Assembly (NCBI GenBank): GCA_005888755.1
Contig: VBBQ01000030.1
Coordinates: 68,085 to 132,084 of the forward strand
Direction of reading: 5' to 3'
DNA: 64,000 bases
Source: Candidatus Bathyarchaeota archaeon
GTDB taxonomy: Archaea > Thermoproteota > Bathyarchaeia > 40CM-2-53-6
Shown piece by piece: positions 2,458-18,759 of the stretch. How positions within the stretch are numbered: the first letter of the stretch is position 1; the number at the start of each line of letters is the position of its first letter. Made by a program: the position numbers and the translations under genes. The notes beneath the pieces are model-generated. The model had not been told where the DNA came from. It searched no databases and saw only the letters and a program-made list of their open reading frames with translations.

Positions 2458-3156
2458 ATTCGCGGAGTCGTCTTCGACCTAGACAACACTCTCATCCAGT
2501 CCAAGAAAGGCGCTCGCCAGGGCCTCCGAACAGTCGCAACCATCTTCGCGAAACGATTGAGGAAAGAAGGATACCACTACGCCGAGGGAAATCTGCTCAG
2601 AAGACTCCGGCTCATCGATTTGGAAATGCACGGCCGAAAATTTCTGTACAATCGGGATGTTTGGTGGGAGACTCTGCTCAAGCAGCTGGGTTTGTCAATG
2701 CTGAAAGCTTCGTGGATTCATGGGACAACTCTCCGATATTGGAAGACGTACGCCGGGGCGAGTCCGATTTTCTCCGACACGATGTCGACTATTCAACGAC
2801 TGAAGAAGGCAGGGTTTAGACTTGGAATGGTCTCCGACTCAGACGGGACGCCGGGAATGAAAATGAAGAGAATCCGGAGACAGCCGTTTCGGAAGTTTCT
2901 TGAGACAATAGTTGTTGCGGGTGAGGATACACGGAATGTGAAGCCGAGCAGGAGACCCTTTACTCTGGTCGCAGAACAACTCGGCTTACAACCAAGGGAC
3001 TGCGTCTACATCGGCGACAACCCAAACACAGACATTCAAGGAGCAAAGGGAGTTGGTATGATGACGATACTTGTGAAACGTCGAGGCCCTAAGGGCGGAC
3101 ATCCAGATTATCTTGCTAGATCGTTGAGTGATGTTGCTAGGCTGCTAATTCGCTGA
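2458..3156 (+). CDS. HAD-superfamily hydrolase. Motif I lies upstream of the first Met, so the start codon is non-canonical or lost.
   Basis: RGVVFDLDNTL (the DxDxT motif I) at 2461-2493 is in the same frame as the track ORF 2557-3156. C-terminal HAD motifs are LGMVSDSDG and YIGDNPNTDIQGAKGVG. There is no ATG, GTG or TTG in frame after the TGA at 2434-2436. Confidence 0.75.
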   Translation: MRGVVFDLDNTLIQSKKGARQGLRTVATIFAKRLRKEGYHYAEGNLLRRLRLIDLEMHGRKFLYNRDVWWETLLKQLGLSMLKASWIHGTTLRYWKTYAGASPIFSDTMSTIQRLKKAGFRLGMVSDSDGTPGMKMKRIRRQPFRKFLETIVVAGEDTRNVKPSRRPFTLVAEQLGLQPRDCVYIGDNPNTDIQGAKGVGMMTILVKRRGPKGGHPDYLARSLSDVARLLIR

Positions 3157-3950
3157 CCTGTTCCGCAACAGACTGGTTTTTGGAAAACTATTCTTTCTGA
3201 ATCACGGCCCATCCGTTCCTTTATGATTCCCGAAAAATCTTCTAGCCTCTCATATCCGATGAATCGTCTGCCAAGATCCATCGCGGCCTTGAGAGTGGTT
3301 CCAGATCCCAGAAAGGGATCCAATACGAGGTCGCCTTCAATGGAAAACATTCGGATCAGTCGTCTTGGAATTTCTTCTGGGAATGCCGCGACGCGCCTTT
3401 CAAGCCCCCAGTGCGTTTGTCTTGTTCCAGTAATGGTCCAGACTTGGGAGAACCATTCGTCTCGTTCTTTCTTGGTGAATTTGCTCCTGTAACGCTTCGG
3501 GTCCTTCGGCTCGAACGTTCTCAGGCTCCCGTTCCGAAAAATCAAGATGTATTCCATGTCCAGGGTCACGTATGCGTTGGGAGGGAGGAAACCTGAGCCT
3601 AGAAACGCTCCCTTTCCCTTGTACCGGGGCTTCGTAGTGGGCTTCTTCCAGAGAATATAGGGCAGGGTGACTAGACTCAGTCTCTCGAAAGTCTCTATTA
3701 CACGCGAATGGTTTGGATAGAGATGGAACACACCGTCCTTTGTCCGTGTTGCGTCCCCTATGTTGACGCAGGCAATTCCTCCGGGAACAAGGACTCTCTT
3801 TACTTCCATCCATGTCTGGTTGAGGTAGCTGTGCATCGCGTCATAGGATTCTGCGGATTCCTTTCGGAAGAAATCGTCCCATATACCAACCATCGGGTAC
3901 GGTGGCGAGGTGACGACTAGATGCACGGAGCTATCGGATAGTTCTTCCAT
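3108..3950 (-). CDS. Beta-class DNA methyltransferase (N4-cytosine or N6-adenine), apparently orphan
   Basis: Motif IV TSPPY lies near the N-terminus and motif I DPFLGSGTT near the C-terminus. That is the circularly permuted beta-class order of DNA_methylase_N4/N6. No restriction endonuclease candidate is adjacent. Confidence 0.85.
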   Translation of the reverse strand: MEELSDSSVHLVVTSPPYPMVGIWDDFFRKESAESYDAMHSYLNQTWMEVKRVLVPGGIACVNIGDATRTKDGVFHLYPNHSRVIETFERLSLVTLPYILWKKPTTKPRYKGKGAFLGSGFLPPNAYVTLDMEYILIFRNGSLRTFEPKDPKRYRSKFTKKERDEWFSQVWTITGTRQTHWGLERRVAAFPEEIPRRLIRMFSIEGDLVLDPFLGSGTTLKAAMDLGRRFIGYERLEDFSGIIKERMGRDSERIVFQKPVCCGTGQRISSLATSLNDLAR

Positions 3951-5868: not shown

Positions 5869-6312
5869 GTGCATCCGGCCATTAGAAGATACGAAAAGAA
5901 TGATGAGACCGCCGTTCTCCAGCTCGCAGAAATATGCTCATGGGACTCCACCCCAACCGAAGCTGACATTCAAGGCTTCCACTCGTCCGAGCCTGACTTC
6001 TTCCTAGTAGCAGAGCTCAACCAAAAAATAATCGGTTTTGTCTACGGCCGTGAATCAAAGAACGTTCCCAATGAAGTCCTGAGGAAATGGAAGGCAACAA
6101 GAGTCGGATCCGTCGAGGTATTGGCAGTCGAGGAAAAGTACAGACGGAGAGGAATCGGAACCCAGCTTCTGAAGAGCCTCTTTCAAGCCTTCACCGAGAG
6201 GGGAATCGACACGGTCACACTGTCAACACCAGCTGAGGAGATTGCGGCAAAAAGACTGTATGACAAATTGGGATTCGAGACTAGAGGCTATTTCTTGAAG
6301 AAGAAACTCTAG
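5869..6312 (+). CDS. GNAT family N-acetyltransferase
   Basis: Motif A RRRGIGTQLL and the C-terminal RLYDKLGFE are present. Confidence 0.85.
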   Translation: MHPAIRRYEKNDETAVLQLAEICSWDSTPTEADIQGFHSSEPDFFLVAELNQKIIGFVYGRESKNVPNEVLRKWKATRVGSVEVLAVEEKYRRRGIGTQLLKSLFQAFTERGIDTVTLSTPAEEIAAKRLYDKLGFETRGYFLKKKL

Positions 6313-10188: not shown

Positions 10189-10229
10189 GTAGCAAGGTGT
10201 CTCCATTCGGCCCTTTCTATTGCGTGTTC

Positions 10230-10715
10230 AGATGGGACCTATCCAAGTTCGATTATCCAGGCCCAACAATCCGAAGATCTAAGAATCAAGTTTGGTTCAG
10301 AGAACGAAATCGGCTCGGCGGCAAGAGTATGGTATGAAGGTCTCGGCCAAGAAGAAGGTTCTCCCTGGACGAGTTATCTGAAGAAATGGACACCCGCAAC
10401 CGCAGCAAAACGGTTTCTAGCTCCAAGAAACGACTCGGCGAGAGGATGTTGGTCGCTGAGAAAGAAGAGACGATTGTTGGAATCAACGGGATAATCTCCG
10501 AGAGGAACTCAGGTAAAGGCGGTTCTTCACCGGAATAGTCGTCTCGCCCAGCTATCGGAGGCAAGGAATCGGATTGCTAATCCTGCACAAGACTCTCTTG
10601 GATCTGAAGGCGGAGGGCCTCCGACGCGCGGAAGTAGAAGCAATTCACGGGATTCTCGCAGCGAAATATCTCTATCCGAAATATGGAGGAAAAAGCATCC
10701 AGGTCCATGCATAGC
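10230..10715 (+). pseudogene. GNAT acetyltransferase broken by at least two frameshifts
   Basis: Three consecutive frames carry GNAT segments. The first is LRIKFGSENEIGSAARVWYEGLGQEEG. The second is RLGERMLVAEKEETIVGINGIISERNSGKG, ending at the TAG at 10536. The third is GIVVSPSYRRQGIGLLILHKTLLDLKAEGLRRAEVEA, motif A. Confidence 0.55.
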
Positions 10716-10733: not shown

Positions 10734-11225
10734 CTACGACTCAGATTGTAGTTCTTGCTTGGTTTTGTTCGCCTTGTCTGTGAGAATGTCTATCGCGTCT
10801 TCTAGCCTCTTGCATTTTTCCTTTTCTGAGAAGAGTGCTGTAAGTAGCTCGTTGATCTTGCTGAGCGCGTAATCCATGCTTCTGTTAATCTGTCCTAACG
10901 GGACATAGTCTAGGCGGCGGGGCATAGTTGAGAAGAGCTGTCGTTGGGCCGCGTTTATCTCGCTCATCTTAGCGTTGTCAGTGGCGCCAAGCCAGGTTAC
11001 TTCTCGCGCGGTTTTCAGACTCTCATACAACTGGTTTTGTAGCTCGATGTAGGCGTTCCAGTAGACGAGCCAGGACTCGTTGAACTCGTCAAATGTCTGC
11101 TCTAGCCGTTTGCTCTTCTCCGCGTTCGAACTGGCTGACAATGGTGGTGGAGGAGGAGACCGCGTCCGGTAAATGTGTTGCGGGGTCGTGTAGCGACTGT
11201 TTATGAGTAGCGTTGCCTGGTCCAC
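10734..11225 (-). CDS. Hypothetical coiled-coil protein with a Pro-rich N-terminus
   Basis: 163 aa. The central and C-terminal regions are heptad-rich (LEQTFDEFNESWLVYWNAYIELQNQLYESLK...). No enzymatic motif. Confidence 0.5.
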   Translation of the reverse strand: MDQATLLINSRYTTPQHIYRTRSPPPPPLSASSNAEKSKRLEQTFDEFNESWLVYWNAYIELQNQLYESLKTAREVTWLGATDNAKMSEINAAQRQLFSTMPRRLDYVPLGQINRSMDYALSKINELLTALFSEKEKCKRLEDAIDILTDKANKTKQELQSES

Positions 11226-11437: not shown

Positions 11438-11614
11438 CTATTTCTTCTTCAAAGCTGCGGACTCGACTTTACCGTGGACCCTGACCGTTCCGACTCGTAA
11501 GGTTGAGGTTGCGAGTTCCATGGTTACATCGAAATTGAAAGCATAGTCTTTTTCAGCCATTTTTTCGAAGACCTCTGCAAGAGAAGAAGGCGACGATTCA
11601 TTCTTCTGGGGCAT
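11438..11614 (-). CDS. Candidate small ORF (58 aa)
   Basis: Hand translation gives MPQKNESSPSSLAEVFEKMAEKDYAFNFDVTMELATSTLRVGTVRVHGKVESAALKKK. It lies 84 bp downstream of the DUF4386 gene on the same strand. Confidence 0.2.
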   Translation of the reverse strand: MPQKNESSPSSLAEVFEKMAEKDYAFNFDVTMELATSTLRVGTVRVHGKVESAALKKK

Positions 11615-11698: not shown

Positions 11699-12406
11699 CT
11701 AGCCTAGCTTGTACAGTTTGAGGCCGACAAGCAAGCTCCAGACCACGAGGAAGATGAAACCTCCTATGTTGAAGAGTCCTGACGGCATGGAACCCATTGC
11801 GAATGTTGGAATGAAGAGAAGCCCTAGGACTCCGCTCAGGATCCCGATGTAGCCCAAGCTCTTCTTGAACGTCTGGCTCTTCAACATAGCATAACTTGCC
11901 AGGATTATTGCGGAAAACTGGAGAAAGGTGGCCACGAGAGCGGTGAGGTTTGCAAGGTCCATCGTCAGCTGTCCTGTCGCCAGATATGCAGCTCGCGTAT
12001 CACCGTTTGTTGAAGCGTAAGAGTTGCTCAAGCCTATGAGAGAAAGGCGCAGAGGAATGTCTACTCCGACATCGACTGCGACGAAAACCATATTGAAAAT
12101 CGTGGCAATCAACGTAACAGTACGGTTAGCCTGCCTTAGCGCGAAATAAAGCGCGGGGAATGCGATGAGGTAAAGAAGGTCGCTTACTAGGTAAATTCCC
12201 CAGGTCGTGCCAAAGAGAACGCTTTGAGATTGGATAGAGGTAAGACCCGACTGCACGGATGATGGAGCCAAGCTCGGAAGGAGGAGAGGTATCAGTGGCA
12301 GGCTGATGAGAACCAGGATGCCGGCTATTATGATACTTATCGCGCCTGCCCGGTAATACCCGGCCCATCTCTTGTCAGGACCTCTCTCTGCCGCTGGACT
12401 TGTCAT
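11699..12406 (-). CDS. DUF4386-like integral membrane protein
   Basis: 235 aa with about six TM segments. The size and pattern resemble DUF4386. Confidence 0.55.
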   Translation of the reverse strand: MTSPAAERGPDKRWAGYYRAGAISIIIAGILVLISLPLIPLLLPSLAPSSVQSGLTSIQSQSVLFGTTWGIYLVSDLLYLIAFPALYFALRQANRTVTLIATIFNMVFVAVDVGVDIPLRLSLIGLSNSYASTNGDTRAAYLATGQLTMDLANLTALVATFLQFSAIILASYAMLKSQTFKKSLGYIGILSGVLGLLFIPTFAMGSMPSGLFNIGGFIFLVVWSLLVGLKLYKLG

Positions 12407-12522
12407 TGAACAGTTTCGATAGGCTATTTGGTGGGTTTCTAACGGTTACCGAGAAGAAGCGAATCGGAGAACTTGATTCGAGGCCACTCTCGCCTGCTTT
12501 TGACTTCGAGCCCCTAGACTAT

Positions 12523-14037
12523 CTAGGCCAAGGCATCGTTGTAAAGGGCGTCCAGCACCGAGTAGGCTTCCTCAGGGGTCGAGGGATTCGCTGGGAGAAT
12601 GTCCTCGGCAATCGATCGTTCAAGGATCTGGCGTATACAATACCGGAGCTTTGTTGGAGTCATGCTCGCCTCCACGTTCCACATGGGATGATCCATGTTG
12701 ACGAAGACTGTTCGGACTCCGTTCTTGTCAGTCTCCACATACGCCTGACCTCGATCTCCACCGTGTGCAATATCGAAGGCTAGGACTTGGTCTTTTAGAT
12801 GTATCACGCTGCGGGTTGCGTCTCTAGGATGAGTCTTCGATTTCCGGTCTCTCCCGTGGCGCGACCCGTTCTCTTTCTTCACCACGTGTTGCGGTGCCTG
12901 GCTGGTCTTTGACGATGTCTTTGCCTTGACTACTGCCTTTGAGAGTATCTCGATGTTTCGCCGGAGACTACGGCGCAATCTCTCTGCAATTTCTCTATTC
13001 AGGTATTGTATGCTGCGGAGTTCTCTGCGGCTGGCGGTCTGTCTTAGGAACTTGTAGACTTTGTTCCGAACAAAGCCGCGCATAGCCTTCTCGAACACTC
13101 GCCACTGCGAACTGTCTCGCTCGAACTCGTTACCACCAGGCAGTCGTCGGAGGAAGTCTGCGTTGACCCAGCCCTGAATGCGGCTTAGCCCGTGGATCCG
13201 GTACTGGTCGAGGCCGAAGAACTGATGTTGGAGACAGGTGATGTGTTTCTGCTGGACGCTCATACCGGCTTCCGATATCCCAGCACGGGTCTTCGAGAGG
13301 GGAAGAATCAAGACTTCGCCAGTAATCTTCCCGTATTCCGTGGCAATATTGACGGGGAGGAGCGTTGCGCCGCGGAGCTCTTCCGGCTTCACCGTTTCGC
13401 CATTTACAAATACTTCGAAGGGACCATACCCCCGTAGAGCAAGGACGTTCGCTCTTGCAAGGAGGGCTCTCCGGACGTCTGCAGGATCAGTTTTCTTCGT
13501 CAGCGATCGGATCCTGATTCTCAAACCATCATGCTCGAGCGGTGCTTGGATCACTCGCAAGGGCTTCCAGGTAGACTGGTCGGTCGGGGCCCAGTGACGG
13601 TCGATAAGGCTCTCGGTTAGCATAATGGTTCGGTCGAAACGTCCCTTGTGGACTTGCAGCTCGAGCTCACGACCTAGAGTGAGCCAGGCGAGACTGCCCA
13701 TCCCATACGACTCGCGAATCGGACGCTTGTACTTCGGCGAGAAACCTTCCCCAGTTGTTTTTCCCTTGGTAAGAAATTCGCGCAGACCATCGAGGTCCAT
13801 TCCATGGCCCCATTCCTCGTATTCGATCTGGGAGCCTGAGTCTGAGATCTCGATCTCAACCCTTGTTGCTTCGCCCCACATCCACGAGTTGACAACAAGC
13901 TCGACGAAAAACTGTGCCGCATCCGTGTACTGCCGTCCAAGGGTCTTGATGATGCTCTTGTGAGTAGCGACCTGTAGATCCTCGTCCATTATCGAGTGTG
14001 CTGCTCTCGCCGAATGCACTAGTCGTCTTGTCGCCAA
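12523..14037 (-). CDS. GHKL-superfamily ATPase (HATPase_c_3 / prokaryotic MORC-like), 504 aa
   Basis: Bergerat-fold motifs are present. The N-box is ELVVNSWMWGEA. The G1-like element is ISDSGSQ...GMDLDG. The G2 element is ESYGMGSLAWLTLG, followed by ELQVHKG. The C-terminal 350 aa is unassigned. Confidence 0.7.
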   Translation of the reverse strand: MATRRLVHSARAAHSIMDEDLQVATHKSIIKTLGRQYTDAAQFFVELVVNSWMWGEATRVEIEISDSGSQIEYEEWGHGMDLDGLREFLTKGKTTGEGFSPKYKRPIRESYGMGSLAWLTLGRELELQVHKGRFDRTIMLTESLIDRHWAPTDQSTWKPLRVIQAPLEHDGLRIRIRSLTKKTDPADVRRALLARANVLALRGYGPFEVFVNGETVKPEELRGATLLPVNIATEYGKITGEVLILPLSKTRAGISEAGMSVQQKHITCLQHQFFGLDQYRIHGLSRIQGWVNADFLRRLPGGNEFERDSSQWRVFEKAMRGFVRNKVYKFLRQTASRRELRSIQYLNREIAERLRRSLRRNIEILSKAVVKAKTSSKTSQAPQHVVKKENGSRHGRDRKSKTHPRDATRSVIHLKDQVLAFDIAHGGDRGQAYVETDKNGVRTVFVNMDHPMWNVEASMTPTKLRYCIRQILERSIAEDILPANPSTPEEAYSVLDALYNDALA

Positions 14038-14130
14038 AGGTCTTGTCGTTTGTCGTATGGAAAGTCGGCCGGATAATGGACTAGTGTAACCGGCCTCAAC
14101 AAAGAACGGGAAATATCGAACAGTTTCTCT

Positions 14131-14685
14131 CTAGCGCGACCCGGCTTTCCTAGTAACTTCCTTCGCAGGCTCCGGCGTATCTGGGAAGAGGTCCTTCGGC
14201 ATTCCGGAGAGAACGTCAGACAGCGAATCACGGCCCATTTGACCTTGGCCTCCGGTCTGGAAGGGGCGGACCCTGTTGAACAGGTCGTCGATCTTGTTTG
14301 CCATCTTCATCTTCTCATTGATCCTCCCATCAAGCTCTTGACCGTCCGCCTCCAGTTGTTGCACTCGTGGCGCGAGTCCTTCTATCCCCTTTGAAACCTC
14401 AAGCATTCCGTTGACAGTAGCGAGTGACGATCTCAGACTGGTGATCTCTTTCTGCATCGCTTCTCGATAGCTACGGAGTCTTTCTAGTATAGGCTGGTAG
14501 AGGCGTAGAAAATCGACCATGAGCCCCTCGAACTGTCGGATAGCGAGGGTGAATTTCTCTTCTCTCTTCTTCTCAGCGAACTGTTTTGCAGTGCCCAAGA
14601 GCTTCTCGCGGAGAGCAACCCTCTCGATAACATCATCCAACACTTCTCGTACATTGTACGACTCGTCAAACACAGTCTCGCGCAT
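14131..14685 (-). CDS. Hypothetical coiled-coil protein (184 aa)
   Basis: Long heptad-rich helices. It sits 93 bp upstream of the GHKL ATPase on the same strand. Confidence 0.5.
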   Translation of the reverse strand: MRETVFDESYNVREVLDDVIERVALREKLLGTAKQFAEKKREEKFTLAIRQFEGLMVDFLRLYQPILERLRSYREAMQKEITSLRSSLATVNGMLEVSKGIEGLAPRVQQLEADGQELDGRINEKMKMANKIDDLFNRVRPFQTGGQGQMGRDSLSDVLSGMPKDLFPDTPEPAKEVTRKAGSR

Positions 14686-14839
14686 TAGAGGTCAATATTC
14701 CATCACAAAGAGCCCGAGCATTAAGAGACACGTCACCGAGCACAATGCAGTTCAGTACTTGGGTTCAGTTAGGTGTGAATATCAGCACCAACTCTTGGCG
14801 ACGAGTCAGGTTATTCCGTTGTCAGAACCTCGGTAGCTG

Positions 14840-15910
14840 CTAGCCATCGTCCCCAAGCCATTCAAGCCATTCACCATGTGCATTTGACCGGGCCAACACC
14901 TTCTCTGTATTTTCTCCATTGTTTAATGAAGCAAGGCTGAGGAGAGGGGTTTCCGAGTTTTTTGGCCACTCGAAGCTAACGTGAAACAGGTGTCTCTTCT
15001 CGGAGGCTTTTGCAAGCATCAACTCCAGTCTCTCTCTTGGTTTCCCGCTTGCGAGGGAGAGTGTAAACGAGTGAAAGGTGCACAACTGTATGTCATCTCG
15101 GACTCGCTTGATGAGGCTAGGGAGAAGCTCTAAGGCATCTCCGCGAACGATTTGTGGAGGGGTACGTTTTGCTAGTTGGATGGCGAGTTCGAGCTGATTG
15201 GCCCTTTTCCGGTGCTCAGGCCATATCAGAGCCCGAAGCCATTGAACGTTCTCTGGATCGTTAATGTCAAGGGGGTTAAGGTCCACTCCGAGCCGTGAGG
15301 CGATTTCCGGAAAACGGTTGGGAACTGGAGGGCGTTTTTCTCCGCGTAGCAGACACTCGACTTGTACAGGGGAGTCAGGGTCCCCACATTGTAAGTTCTT
15401 GTTGTATTGGTAGTGGTATCGGTCCCAGAGCAATGTTAGACCTGCGCTTGAGCCAATCTCGATTAGAGCCAGTGGCCGATTTTTCGCCTGGCGGGCTACG
15501 AGTTCGAAGGCTGGGACCAGGATTGCACAACGCCCCACTTCGTTTGTCTGAACGAAGCGGGCGGTGATTATTCCCTCTATCTCGTTCTCGTGTTCAAGGA
15601 CGAAGCTGCGAAAATAGGGATAAGCAAGGTCGTAGTGCTTGGAGTTATTGTTGAGACTGGGGTAGAACGCGGTTAGCTGATGATGCTCACCTTTCAGCAG
15701 AAGAAAATGGACGGCAGAGAAGAACAGGTTTGGTAGAGCGTTTTTCTCCCAAGCCTTGGCCGCTATTGTTAGGAGTTCCGGATCTTCCGCAACCCTCATT
15801 GCGAGGCTGACGTACAAGGGGGAGCGACCAGGATAGACAGTGCTAGCATAATAGCGAAAGTTTTCCGCTGCTTTGTCAACAGGTGATGGCGAAGGGTCTG
15901 GATTACCCAT
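14840..15910 (-). CDS. DUF2332-family protein (class-I SAM-methyltransferase-like fold)
   Basis: The N-terminus FRYYASTVYPGRSPLYVSLA...SAVHFLLLKG is typical of DUF2332. LALIEIGSSAGLTLL resembles MTase motif I, and GVDLNPLD resembles motif II. Confidence 0.6.
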   Translation of the reverse strand: MGNPDPSPSPVDKAAENFRYYASTVYPGRSPLYVSLAMRVAEDPELLTIAAKAWEKNALPNLFFSAVHFLLLKGEHHQLTAFYPSLNNNSKHYDLAYPYFRSFVLEHENEIEGIITARFVQTNEVGRCAILVPAFELVARQAKNRPLALIEIGSSAGLTLLWDRYHYQYNKNLQCGDPDSPVQVECLLRGEKRPPVPNRFPEIASRLGVDLNPLDINDPENVQWLRALIWPEHRKRANQLELAIQLAKRTPPQIVRGDALELLPSLIKRVRDDIQLCTFHSFTLSLASGKPRERLELMLAKASEKRHLFHVSFEWPKNSETPLLSLASLNNGENTEKVLARSNAHGEWLEWLGDDG

Positions 15911-16327: not shown

Positions 16328-16846
16328 ATGATATCTATGCAAAACACAAACTATCCCGCCTATGTCTTCGCGACCGTTAATCACGGCATGACGAAGAACG
16401 TGGTCGAGGAGCTAAAGAACAACCCCAACATCGACCTCATCGCACCCGTCACCGGACGTTTCGACCTCGCACTCCGACTAAAACAGACCACTCCAGAGCA
16501 AATCGTACAACTCGTCAGCCAGATCCGCCAAGTAAAAGGCATCCAGACAACCCAGACACTCTTCGGTTTCAATGGCATCAACGGTGCTCACTTCCAAAAC
16601 CAGATGCCACTCGGCATCAGCCTCTTCAACGTCACCACTCCATTCCAGACATTCGTAAACCAACTCAAGAGCTTCCCAGGCCTCATCGAGGCATGGACAA
16701 CACCAGGCCAGTTCGACATCGTAGCACTCTGGCAGGCAAGGACTTCTGACGAGATCGTCAAGTCCGCCTTCGAGAAGTTCCCTACTCTACAAGGCATCGC
16801 TCGCAGCGAGACACTTCTCGCCCCTACGCCGCTCTTCAAGCAGTAA
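16328..16846 (+). CDS. Tandem Lrp/AsnC ligand-binding (RAM) domain protein with no HTH
   Basis: Two AsnC_trans_reg-like beta-alpha-beta-beta-alpha-beta modules are present. They are AYVFATV...IDLIAPVTGRFDLALRLK and LFNVTT...GQFDIVALWQ. Confidence 0.65.
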   Translation: MISMQNTNYPAYVFATVNHGMTKNVVEELKNNPNIDLIAPVTGRFDLALRLKQTTPEQIVQLVSQIRQVKGIQTTQTLFGFNGINGAHFQNQMPLGISLFNVTTPFQTFVNQLKSFPGLIEAWTTPGQFDIVALWQARTSDEIVKSAFEKFPTLQGIARSETLLAPTPLFKQ

Positions 16847-16998: not shown

Positions 16999-17562
16999 CT
17001 AACGGGTGAAGCGTTTCATCTGGCCGCTTACAATTCTCGATCCTAATCGTAGCTGTGGTTTTCCCAGCAGGCCGGTCAAGACCTCTTTTTGGTCCGGTGG
17101 TTGTCCGGGAAACCTTTCGATGATTCGTTTCATTTCGGTGAAGAGCTTCTCGTAGTATTCCCGTCGATGCGTATTTTGGTCCACTAGCTGCCAGTCTAGT
17201 TGCGTGTAGACAGTTTCTCTTCGATCTCCGTTTCCATCATGTATGACCGCTTCCGCTTCGAACATGAAGTCTTGATTCCTTCCACGGAGGGCGAGGTAGA
17301 GGGCGAAGGGAATTCGAGAAGGTGGTGAAAAAGCGATGTAGCCGCTCTCATGACGGTCGAACCTCCGGCGAAGGTTCGCTCTGTGGCCTCCGCTGCAAGA
17401 TGAGAATGTTCTATATCCCTTGCTGTTAAGTGACGAAACGATCTCTCGAATGGCCGGGTCAATGCGTGAAGCGTTCCTTCCAACTCCTAGATTCTTCCAG
17501 TTTGACGCGTCAAGTTCTCCCAGTTTCCTGGAATGGGCTCGTGGCAAGAATTCTCTGGGCAA
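16999..17562 (-). CDS. Hypothetical protein, co-transcribed with the Rieske oxygenase
   Basis: 187 aa. Its start lies 4 nt after the Rieske gene stop. No known motif. Confidence 0.45.
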   Translation of the reverse strand: MPREFLPRAHSRKLGELDASNWKNLGVGRNASRIDPAIREIVSSLNSKGYRTFSSCSGGHRANLRRRFDRHESGYIAFSPPSRIPFALYLALRGRNQDFMFEAEAVIHDGNGDRRETVYTQLDWQLVDQNTHRREYYEKLFTEMKRIIERFPGQPPDQKEVLTGLLGKPQLRLGSRIVSGQMKRFTR

Positions 17563-17565
17563 CGG

Positions 17566-18759
17566 CTAGACTCCAGTCAGCGTACTGGTTTGACTATTGC
17601 TCGAGACGGTCTCGTAGACGAGTCTGTGGAACCAATGGGGTCCTGTCTCTTCGTTCGGGGCAAACCGTCCTCGGGGCGCGAACCCGGACTTTGCTCCGGC
17701 ACTTACTAGGCTGATCGCTTCAATGTCTTCAGCATCTACTTGCTCGTTGAGCCAGGTGCTGTTTCGATGCCGGAATTTGTCTTCGTCTAGGGCGTACTGG
17801 TACCATAGAAAGCGCGTTCTGTCAGGCTTCCCGGGGATCGGCATGTACACATTGACTGATACCCCCCATGGATAGAAGTTCAGTGTTGTATTTGGGAAGA
17901 TAAACCACCACAAAGCAAACACTCTCTTCGAGTTGTCCTTCCCGTCTCTAAACCGGTCGGCCAGGAGTCGGTGCTCGAACCCGTTCTCCTCGTCCCTTGC
18001 GTATGCCCACTGCAGAGCGCTGAACTTGTACAGCTCAGTTCGGTAGGAGGACAGGTCGATAGCGTCGGCCAGTCCACCAGGTCCTTTGTGGACGAATCTG
18101 ATGTGGAAGTTGTCCATGTAGTTCCAAGCATGTTGTTTCCAGTTTCCATCAACCTCTCGAACTTCACCATCAACACGCTGTCTTCTCAGCGCCTCGAGTC
18201 TGATTCCAGGTATCGATTGTTGAGCCTTCTCCACGAACTCGTGGAAGTATGCCAACGGTTCGCCGGTAGAAACGAATATCCATGGTCCCCACTCATCCAC
18301 TTGAACATTTCGAAGATTGTCCGATTTCTTTGGAAACCCCTCCATCTTCTCAAATCCCGCATGCGCGACGAATCTGCCTTCGTTGTCAAATTGGCGTCCG
18401 TGTTGAGGACAGATTATTGTCCCTCCAATGCTCGACGATTCAACGAGAGGGTGCCAAGCGTGCGTGCAGACGTTGGGGAAGCAGCTCAGCTTCCCATGTT
18501 GGCCTCGCTGGAGAAAGAGGGGTTTTCCTAGAAGATTGAATGGAACTCTAGAACCGGTTTTCCCTAGGGAGTCTGTGAGAGCGGCCAGACTATTCTGGGA
18601 ATTACTTTCTTGTGGTGCTAACAGCCAGGTGTGAGCAAAGATAGTTCCAAGTTCTAGGTCGAGAAATTCTAGGTCGACGAAGGCTGAACTGGGTAGGGAT
18701 TCTGCTCGAGTAATCTCGGGATCTACAAAGAATTCTCTCGTCGAGAGGATTTTGTTCAT
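17566..18759 (-). CDS. Rieske [2Fe-2S] non-heme-iron oxygenase, alpha-subunit-like
   Basis: The Rieske CxH-x17-CxxH motif is CTHAWHPL...CPQHG. The mononuclear-iron Dx2Hx4H motif is NYMDNFHIRFVH. Confidence 0.8.
   Translation of the reverse strand: MNKILSTREFFVDPEITRAESLPSSAFVDLEFLDLELGTIFAHTWLLAPQESNSQNSLAALTDSLGKTGSRVPFNLLGKPLFLQRGQHGKLSCFPNVCTHAWHPLVESSSIGGTIICPQHGRQFDNEGRFVAHAGFEKMEGFPKKSDNLRNVQVDEWGPWIFVSTGEPLAYFHEFVEKAQQSIPGIRLEALRRQRVDGEVREVDGNWKQHAWNYMDNFHIRFVHKGPGGLADAIDLSSYRTELYKFSALQWAYARDEENGFEHRLLADRFRDGKDNSKRVFALWWFIFPNTTLNFYPWGVSVNVYMPIPGKPDRTRFLWYQYALDEDKFRHRNSTWLNEQVDAEDIEAISLVSAGAKSGFAPRGRFAPNEETGPHWFHRLVYETVSSNSQTSTLTGV

Follow-up and report, generated by a model that had tools for sequence, protein, structure and literature searches.

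A divergent MORC-like GHKL protein is the stable element of a four-gene block in soil Bathyarchaeia

Four neighbouring genes on a contig of a Candidatus Bathyarchaeota archaeon raise the question of whether a MORC-like ATPase and the genes around it form a new accessory or defence system. The contig (VBBQ01000030.1, assembly GCA_005888755.1) was analysed over positions 68,085 to 132,084, and this whole stretch of 64,000 nucleotides is referred to here as the window, with coordinates counted from its first letter. The initial annotation, made from the sequence alone, had grouped the genes at 11699-15910, encoding a DUF2332 protein, a coiled-coil protein, a 504-amino-acid (aa) GHKL ATPase and a DUF4386 membrane protein, into one island. 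The gene arrangement itself is borne out by the list of open reading frames (ORFs), in which all four ORFs lie on the minus strand and are separated by gaps of 154, 93 and 116 bp. As a result of the analyses below, the block is best explained as a vertically inherited segment of soil Bathyarchaeia whose functional unit is a single gene, which would encode a MORC-type clamp in a chromosome-maintenance or regulatory role, a reading to which we assign a probability of roughly 0.55.

The 504-aa protein (12523-14037, minus strand, TTG start) is the sole stable element of the block. Its HATPase_c_3 match stays below the Pfam threshold, with 20.9 bits against a gathering score of 25. Despite this score, its identity as a MORC-like GHKL protein is secure, because it is carried by both the AlphaFold2 (AF2) model and a profile match to MORC4. 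The model, obtained from an alignment of 66 sequences including distant relatives, has a predicted local distance difference test (pLDDT) score of 83.4 and a predicted template modelling (pTM) score of 0.73, compared with a pLDDT of 35 when 18 close homologues alone were used. It contains the Bergerat ATP-binding fold of the GHKL superfamily followed by an S5-fold domain, which is the MORC layout in the sense of Iyer et al. 2008. MORC3, MORC2 and SMCHD1 are its best structural matches, and the family profile searched against PDB sequences is led by MORC4 (7.5e-21) and MORC3 (2.2e-19), aligned over two stretches corresponding to the GHKL and S5 regions. The MORC-like assignment of the initial annotation is thereby upheld, and the housekeeping ortholog that it had named as the alternative outcome did not emerge: by equivalog models and structural similarity, the protein is not a MutL, HtpG or TopoVI-B.

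Close homologues of the protein form 69 clusters at 69-95% identity, derived from soil metagenomes and from metagenome-assembled genomes named Candidatus Bathyarchaeota. An exhaustive profile search returned 204 representatives at E ≤ 0.001, many of them full-length proteins of about 500 aa at 20-30% identity, and a profile of the distant members alone retrieved at least 2,176 clusters (90% identity) at E ≤ 1e-10. HATPase_c_3 was matched by all ten scanned relatives of about 500 aa, whose lengths are 458-512 aa except for one of 654 aa; in nine cases the match reaches 1e-17 to 1e-24. The clusters of this wider family include Omnitrophota, Deltaproteobacteria, KSB1, Aerophobetes, Fidelibacterota and others, their proteins are named just "ATP-binding protein", and literature searches for a MORC-like family of about 500 aa found no paper. 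Within this large and mostly bacterial family of stand-alone proteins, the 504-aa protein represents a divergent branch from archaea.

The 350 residues following the GHKL domain, initially described as an unassigned C-terminus, resolve into an S5-fold domain, a long helix, a linker and a small C-terminal domain; for the last of these, which belongs to no Pfam family, the description still holds. The S5-fold, transducer-like domain (residues 205-300, 13138-13425, minus strand) retains a conserved basic residue, K/R264. The GhXhhpXXRhl motif of the S5 domain, a MORC feature (PMC2292703), fails in the window protein, where the corresponding position reads GMSVQQKHITC from G258 onwards with Ile266 in place of the Arg; among distant relatives, Arg is found at this column in 17 of 59. 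The AF2 secondary structure continues with a long helix (residues 310-375) and a disordered, Lys/Arg-rich linker (residues 376-409), together encoded at 12811-13110 on the minus strand. This segment (residues 310-409) is variable in sequence within the clade, and pLDDT falls below 50 for residues 375-405. The C-terminal domain (residues 410-504, 12526-12810, minus strand) has a small alpha/beta fold with the motif (V/I)N-x-D-H-P-x-(Y/W) and no HExxH. It is common to the archaeal clade and the bacterial relatives, and Asn447 and His450 do not vary among 27 diverse sequences. When 66 family members were scanned against Pfam, the GHKL models apart, there was no family matched by more than two members and, among the 25 Pfam families shown, no nuclease or TIR family, and a profile of the C-terminal domain found nothing meaningful among PDB sequences.

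The N-box, G1 and G2 motifs, which had been called clear in the initial annotation, are recognisable in the Bergerat-fold domain (residues 1-200, 13438-14037, minus strand) but non-canonical, the altered motifs reading ELVVNSWMWGEA, YEEWGHGM, RESYGMGS and, for motif IV, HDGL. The canonical set of N-box ExxxNxxD, G1 DxGxG, G2 GxxGxG and motif IV G-T is not intact in the protein. Residues of the window clade (18 aligned sequences, 69-100% identity) were compared with column counts for 59 distant relatives. The N-box Asp, present in 54 of the 59, is Met53 in the clade; the adenine-contacting Asp of G1 (53/59) is Glu75; the first Gly of G2 (58/59) is Glu109; the Lys after G2 (43/59) is Ser115; and the Thr of motif IV (48/59) is Leu172. 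Retained are the catalytic Glu46, the Mg-binding Asn50, G77 and G79 of G1, and G112 and G114 of G2. Every changed and every retained position is invariant in the clade alignment. Judged from this alignment, the ATP site is under constraint yet non-canonical, because the changed positions do not vary over 69-100% identity. Nucleotide handling is probably altered or weakened rather than canonical, since substitutions in four motifs are invariant while Glu46 and Asn50 are kept.

An additional observation concerns the start of this gene. The region 14019-14231 (minus strand), which overlaps the ATPase start at 14037, encodes in another frame a translation containing VTLVHYPADFPYDKRQDL upstream of the TTG start, and this translation resembles the in-frame N-terminal extension annotated in homologues of 522-523 aa (P0013: MMRVTAFHYPAEFPCDEQTSP-LATRR). 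Either the window ATPase has lost an N-terminal extension by frameshift, or the upstream DNA is conserved as non-coding or regulatory sequence.

Comparison with characterised GHKL proteins places the protein near MORC, with clear differences. Like the eukaryotic MORC modules (MORC3 5ix1/5ix2, MORC2 5of9, MORC4 7k7t) and SMCHD1, it has a helical segment after the GHKL and S5 module, and its alignment to MORC4 includes the "G-x-V-x-A-D-F-L" region after the S5 sheet. Unlike eukaryotic MORC proteins, it carries no CW, chromo-like or other reader domain and its C-terminal domain is different; sequence identity is about 12-16%, Ile266 replaces the motif Arg and the four ATP motifs are substituted. 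Prokaryotic MORC and paraMORC1-5 proteins, which occur in restriction-modification contexts, possess intact ATP motifs and lie in operons with superfamily II (SFII) helicases, methylases and endonucleases (PMC2292703). The 504-aa protein shares with them the N-terminal GHKL and S5 domains and a family-specific C-terminal extension, and its wider family likewise spans many bacterial phyla; it differs from paraMORC1-5, as far as these families can be compared by their descriptions, in its altered motifs and in having no linked helicase or endonuclease. Neither the C-terminal RecB-like nuclease of paraMORC3 nor the TIR domain of paraMORC4 was detected in its family, and by description paraMORC5 has an HxH C-terminal domain, in contrast to the N-x-D-H-P motif of the window protein, and paraMORC2 an ExxxH in S5. 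The protein also differs from MutL: no NCBIfam MutL model matches, no mismatch-repair genes are nearby, the C-terminal domain, of about 95 residues, is without the DQHA(X)2E(X)4E endonuclease motif, and the fold matches of the protein include no C-terminal domain of MutL. Because the intact ATP motifs, the restriction-modification neighbourhood and the S5 signature expected of MORC all failed, the most fitting description of the 504-aa protein is that of a divergent member in a MORC-related family of prokaryotes that is still uncharacterised.

To what extent the four genes travel together was assessed in 27 ATPase-anchored loci (7 from exact-protein look-ups and 20 from GTDB species-representative genomes; numbered with the prefix L), where neighbours were inspected within 10 kb on each side of the ATPase gene, and in a further 80 metagenome loci, which were anchored on the coiled-coil gene and sample the close subclade only. 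The DUF4386 gene (11699-12406, minus strand, 235 aa) is correctly assigned (PF14329, 33.2 bits against a gathering score of 27.6), and about six hydrophobic segments in a Kyte-Doolittle plot agree with the six transmembrane helices attributed to its product. The gene is nevertheless present in only 3 of the 27 ATPase-anchored loci and in 24 of 50 close-subclade metagenome loci, some of the latter holding just remnants of about 100 nt. Two loci without it, L004 and L005, have a conserved small ORF directly after the ATPase, and its counterpart in the window (11441-11614, minus strand, 58 aa, no family assignment) is 98% identical by tblastn to the 58-aa gene of L004 and 72% identical to the 61-aa gene of L005. 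The DUF4386 gene is a presence/absence-polymorphic insertion between the ATPase and this ORF.

The DUF2332 gene (14840-15910, minus strand, 356 aa) likewise carries a sound assignment, with a full-length PF10094 match at 3.9e-106 (355.7 bits against a cutoff of 25), and its product has no relative among PDB sequences. Among the 27 loci, the gene is restricted to the subclade with ATPase identity of at least 88%, at 0.1-4 kb from the coiled-coil gene, and it is adjacent to the latter in 31 of 58 close-subclade metagenome loci. Its identity ranges from 53 to 99% even beside a coiled-coil gene of 100% identity. In loci L036-L041, L049 and L065, DUF2332 is 64-66% identical to that of the window, whereas the adjacent coiled-coil gene is 99-100% and the ATPase 85-95% (mostly 92-95%) identical. 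This sharp mosaic boundary suggests that the gene was exchanged for a paralogue or that recombination replaced the allele. At the other extreme, eight genes of the window have counterparts of 99-100% identity on the metagenome contig Ga0209761_1005424 (L042). Neither DUF2332 nor DUF4386 occurs in any of seven bacterial contexts, where the ATPase relative stands alone, surrounded by housekeeping genes. The DUF2332 and DUF4386 genes are polymorphic and incidental neighbours, not partners.

The coiled-coil gene (14131-14685, minus strand) behaves differently. Its 184-aa product is helical and probably a coiled coil, with weak matches to coiled-coil families only, no relative in PDB or NCBIfam and no family assignment; it is also unlike the genes directly upstream of the bacterial relatives. 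In all 12 loci with ATPase identity of at least 88%, the gene lies directly upstream of the ATPase, and the two are adjacent in 66 of 68 metagenome loci, the remaining two, scored as "elsewhere", also having an ATPase match directly downstream. Within 10 kb of the ATPase, it is absent from 13 of the 27 loci, and in two others it is displaced, lying 6 kb away behind four genes in L003 and convergent downstream in L021. The slot directly upstream of the ATPase varies by subclade. Where the coiled-coil gene does not fill it, it is taken by a KNTase-type nucleotidyltransferase (L014, L015, L017, L027), by small unknown ORFs or by a ribosomal-protein/SecY cluster (L002). The coiled-coil gene is a tightly linked upstream partner acquired in one Bathyarchaeia subclade.

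A separate observation concerns two unrelated nucleotidyltransferase genes of the Pol-beta superfamily, each the immediate upstream neighbour of the ATPase in an independent lineage. One is the KNTase_C-type gene just mentioned, from a Bathyarchaeia subclade (L014:9101-9859 and the three other loci; gap 85 bp), and the other is an AbiEii-like gene of Omnitrophica (L030:5475-5999, gap 1 bp). This may be coincidence or a recurrent class of partner.

The proposal that all four gene products, encoded in a variable island, work together as an accessory or defence system not described before is rejected, because conserved co-occurrence of the four families, whose absence the initial annotation had itself named as refuting, is missing. 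It could draw on the shared strand and short gaps, a pseudogene nearby, differences between clades in the purS-ATPase segment, and the restriction-modification contexts of MORC and paraMORC proteins (PMC2292703). Against these stand the rarity and polymorphism of DUF4386, the confinement of DUF2332 to one subclade at variable distance and with a divergence independent of its neighbours, and the absence of both from the bacterial contexts examined. The genomic evidence that follows, in which signs of defence are missing and the ATPase is more conserved than PurQ, makes such a system very improbable.

The ATPase is present as one locus per genome in the 20 GTDB species representatives, 18 of which are titled Bathyarchaeota/Bathyarchaeia, Crenarchaeota or "archaeon". 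The two otherwise-titled genomes, L014 (DASPWZ010000009.1, "Candidatus Dormiibacterota bacterium") and L018 (JAJPJY010000092.1, "bacterium"), share the same layout, and as carriers of a Bathyarchaeia-type purQ-purS-ATPase locus they are likely mis-binned or mislabelled. In 19 of the 27 loci, the ATPase lies a few kb from purS/purQ, and in all 19 of these syntenic loci its identity exceeds that of PurQ (e.g. 91% vs 86%, 81% vs 74% and 79% vs 73%). By the Nei-Gojobori method, omega is 0.05-0.13 for PurQ, compared with 0.03-0.06 for the ATPase and 0.03-0.055 for the coiled-coil gene. The G+C content of the block, 0.50-0.55, equals that of the remainder of the window. Relatives of the ATPase are nearly absent from mobile elements, with only 8 weak partial matches in 72,556 plasmid records and none in phages, and gene tables or tblastn revealed no helicase or nuclease within 10 kb in the 27 Bathyarchaeia loci.

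Defence models are equally silent on the block. Searched against PADLOC-DB 2.0, the four proteins gave no match at E ≤ 0.001, and the only match above that value is a weak, chance-level one of the coiled-coil protein to LmuB (E 0.0038, 13.6 bits). The scan took in 17 window proteins within about 12 kb, and among ten further neighbours the sole strong match is a type II DNA methyltransferase (3108-3950), 8.6 kb away, which is not accompanied by a restriction-enzyme gene and whose own position is syntenic in relatives; the other neighbour match, to an RT-nitrilase model, is marginal (0.00083). Because of the pur synteny, the constraint, the lack of defence matches and the near-absence from plasmids and phages, the 504-aa gene is a vertically inherited lineage-core gene and not part of a mobile defence island.

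The decayed GNAT acetyltransferase gene that had been taken as a mark of such an island does exist (10200-10714, plus strand), with tblastx segments in window frames 3, 1, 3 and 2, that is, at least three frame changes. Its homologue is one intact ORF of 164-173 aa in L009 (12612-13106) and L010 (4831-5352), matching Acetyltransf_1 at 3.8e-10 and 1.7e-9, respectively, and the gene is also recognisable in L003, L016 and L023. Scanned directly against Pfam, the ORF fragments in 10386-10714 gave no GNAT signal, and the pseudogene was recognised only by way of its intact orthologues in L009 and L010. The intact GNAT gene at 5869-6312 is a separate gene. Roughly 1 kb and two other ORFs separate the pseudogene from the block, and one decayed gene at this distance is ordinary gene turnover, not the sign of an island.

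How such a core protein could act is suggested by its domain order, MutL and MORC sharing a layout of N-terminal domain, linker and C-terminal domain. If the protein behaves as MutL, MORC and Hsp90 are established to do, a constitutive homodimer would be held together by the C-terminal domain and the long helix, the two heads formed by GHKL and S5 domains would open and close as a gate, and the Lys/Arg-rich linker would line the cavity and bind nucleic acid. A clamp acting on DNA would follow from the dimer, the gating heads and the basic linker, and could serve a lineage-specific role in chromosome maintenance or regulation, with the coiled-coil protein as a plausible adaptor in the window's subclade. 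A more specific proposal, doubtful but worth stating, is that a MORC-derived clamp with all four motifs remodelled, as a pseudo-ATPase or with a changed ligand, has been recruited from conflict systems to a housekeeping role in organising chromatin or DNA; the protein would then be a core, single-copy, chromosome-associated factor with a coiled-coil adaptor in one subclade, and its C-terminal domain a new module shared with thousands of bacterial "ATP-binding proteins".

Several points weigh against the core-clamp reading. The clamp and its DNA binding are drawn by analogy; the invariant Asn and His of the C-terminal domain may serve catalysis; and unlinked partners located elsewhere in the genomes would escape an inspection of 10 kb per side. 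To these are added the close second place of Hsp90/TRAP1 in the structure comparison and the position of one bacterial relative (P0286, about 490 aa), whose GHKL gene directly follows groES-groEL on the same strand with a gap of 172 bp (L117:3869-7473). Both would fit an Hsp90-like ATP-gated chaperone acquired from bacteria and filling a role that archaea otherwise lack, as would the housekeeping-like behaviour of a stand-alone, strongly conserved gene and a charged linker followed by a C-terminal domain that, on the model, may mediate dimerisation. MORC, however, outscores Hsp90 in both structure and profile searches, and it is to MORC4 that the signature of the S5 region aligns. Among NCBIfam models, neither HtpG nor Hsp90 is matched by the window protein, its relatives reach 19-40 bits against cutoffs of 371-455, its order of linker and middle domain differs from that of Hsp90, TRAP1 and HtpG, and it is much shorter. 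The groESL adjacency is a single case among about seven bacterial contexts, and we consider the chaperone explanation unlikely.

A further point against the core-clamp reading is an N6_N4 DNA methyltransferase gene on the opposite strand, about 1-3 kb upstream of the ATPase on its purS side, with purS beyond it, which recurs in each of the 12 loci of the clade with about 80% ATPase identity (including L001, L006, L007, L014-L018, L023, L025 and L027). This proximity could be plain synteny or a weak link of the restriction-modification type. In the latter case, the coiled-coil protein and the ATPase might form a two-gene conflict or defence module, restriction-like in the manner of paraMORC and possibly acting with the nearby methyltransferase. 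The adjacency of the pair throughout the close subclade, with the partner still nearby in L003 and L021, speaks for such a module, as does a more distant plasmid homologue that adjoins a DEAD/DEAH helicase. So do the N-terminal regions of about 200 residues of bacterial relatives, which resemble the ATPase domain of BbrUII/HgiDII (NCBIfam NF050001, 1e-14 to 1e-35) and also match MzaB, the ATPase of the MZA defence system (1e-3 to 1e-5). The NF050001 matches, however, reach at most 121 bits, far below the cutoff of 550, and cover the GHKL domain only and no nuclease part, and the window protein matches neither model. The methyltransferases of the two clades (that of the window at 3108-3950) are different paralogues, with about 31-36% identity, and do not share a position. 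The Bathyarchaeia loci examined contain no linked gene for a nuclease, helicase or restriction enzyme, and the canonical ATP motifs expected of paraMORC are not intact. With the coiled-coil gene missing within 10 kb in nearly half of the 27 loci, and both genes held at a fixed chromosomal position under strong purifying selection, a two-gene module is quite unlikely, and the core clamp remains the preferred reading.

Other genes around the block were also characterised. Between the block and the GNAT pseudogene, the minus-strand gene at 10734-11225 encodes a second helical protein (163 aa) with weak prefoldin-like matches, which is unlike the 184-aa protein and is kept downstream of the ATPase throughout the close subclade. 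On the other side, the plus-strand gene at 16328-16846 encodes a 172-aa protein with two Lrp/AsnC ligand-binding (RAM-like) domains and no detected helix-turn-helix; it is the most conserved gene of the neighbourhood, with 92-100% identity and an omega of 0.02-0.06. It is followed at 16999-17562 (minus strand) by a gene for a 187-aa protein with a weak TYW3-like N-terminal match (E 0.0017), which in relatives always adjoins the Rieske oxygenase gene (17566-18759). Scans for tRNAs and Rfam families gave no match in the window. In the clade with about 80% identity, purL (FGAM synthase) carries an intein with a LAGLIDADG endonuclease (1588-5271 in L006 and L007), its product having 1,225-1,227 aa compared with 749 aa in the window's clade, and TnpB/Cas12f-like (OrfB_IS605) genes lie 4-9 kb downstream of the ATPase in the same two loci.

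In summary, the failure of the four-gene defence reading saves follow-up effort, and what remains is a modest lead, a MORC-like family of proteins of about 500 aa (at least 2,176 clusters) with a C-terminal domain lacking a Pfam model and with no described function. Two points of modest interest are worth follow-up: that a core gene of archaea has an altered Bergerat site, and that the C-terminal domain has no assignment. The archaeal branch behaves as a core gene, yet the residues usually responsible for binding adenine and shaping the ATP lid have been replaced in it. If this branch still cycles nucleotide, the Bergerat site would tolerate more variation than its canonical motifs imply; if it does not, the branch would be a natural case of a GHKL clamp turned scaffold. 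Either outcome would bear on how MORC-type machines move between conflict and housekeeping roles.

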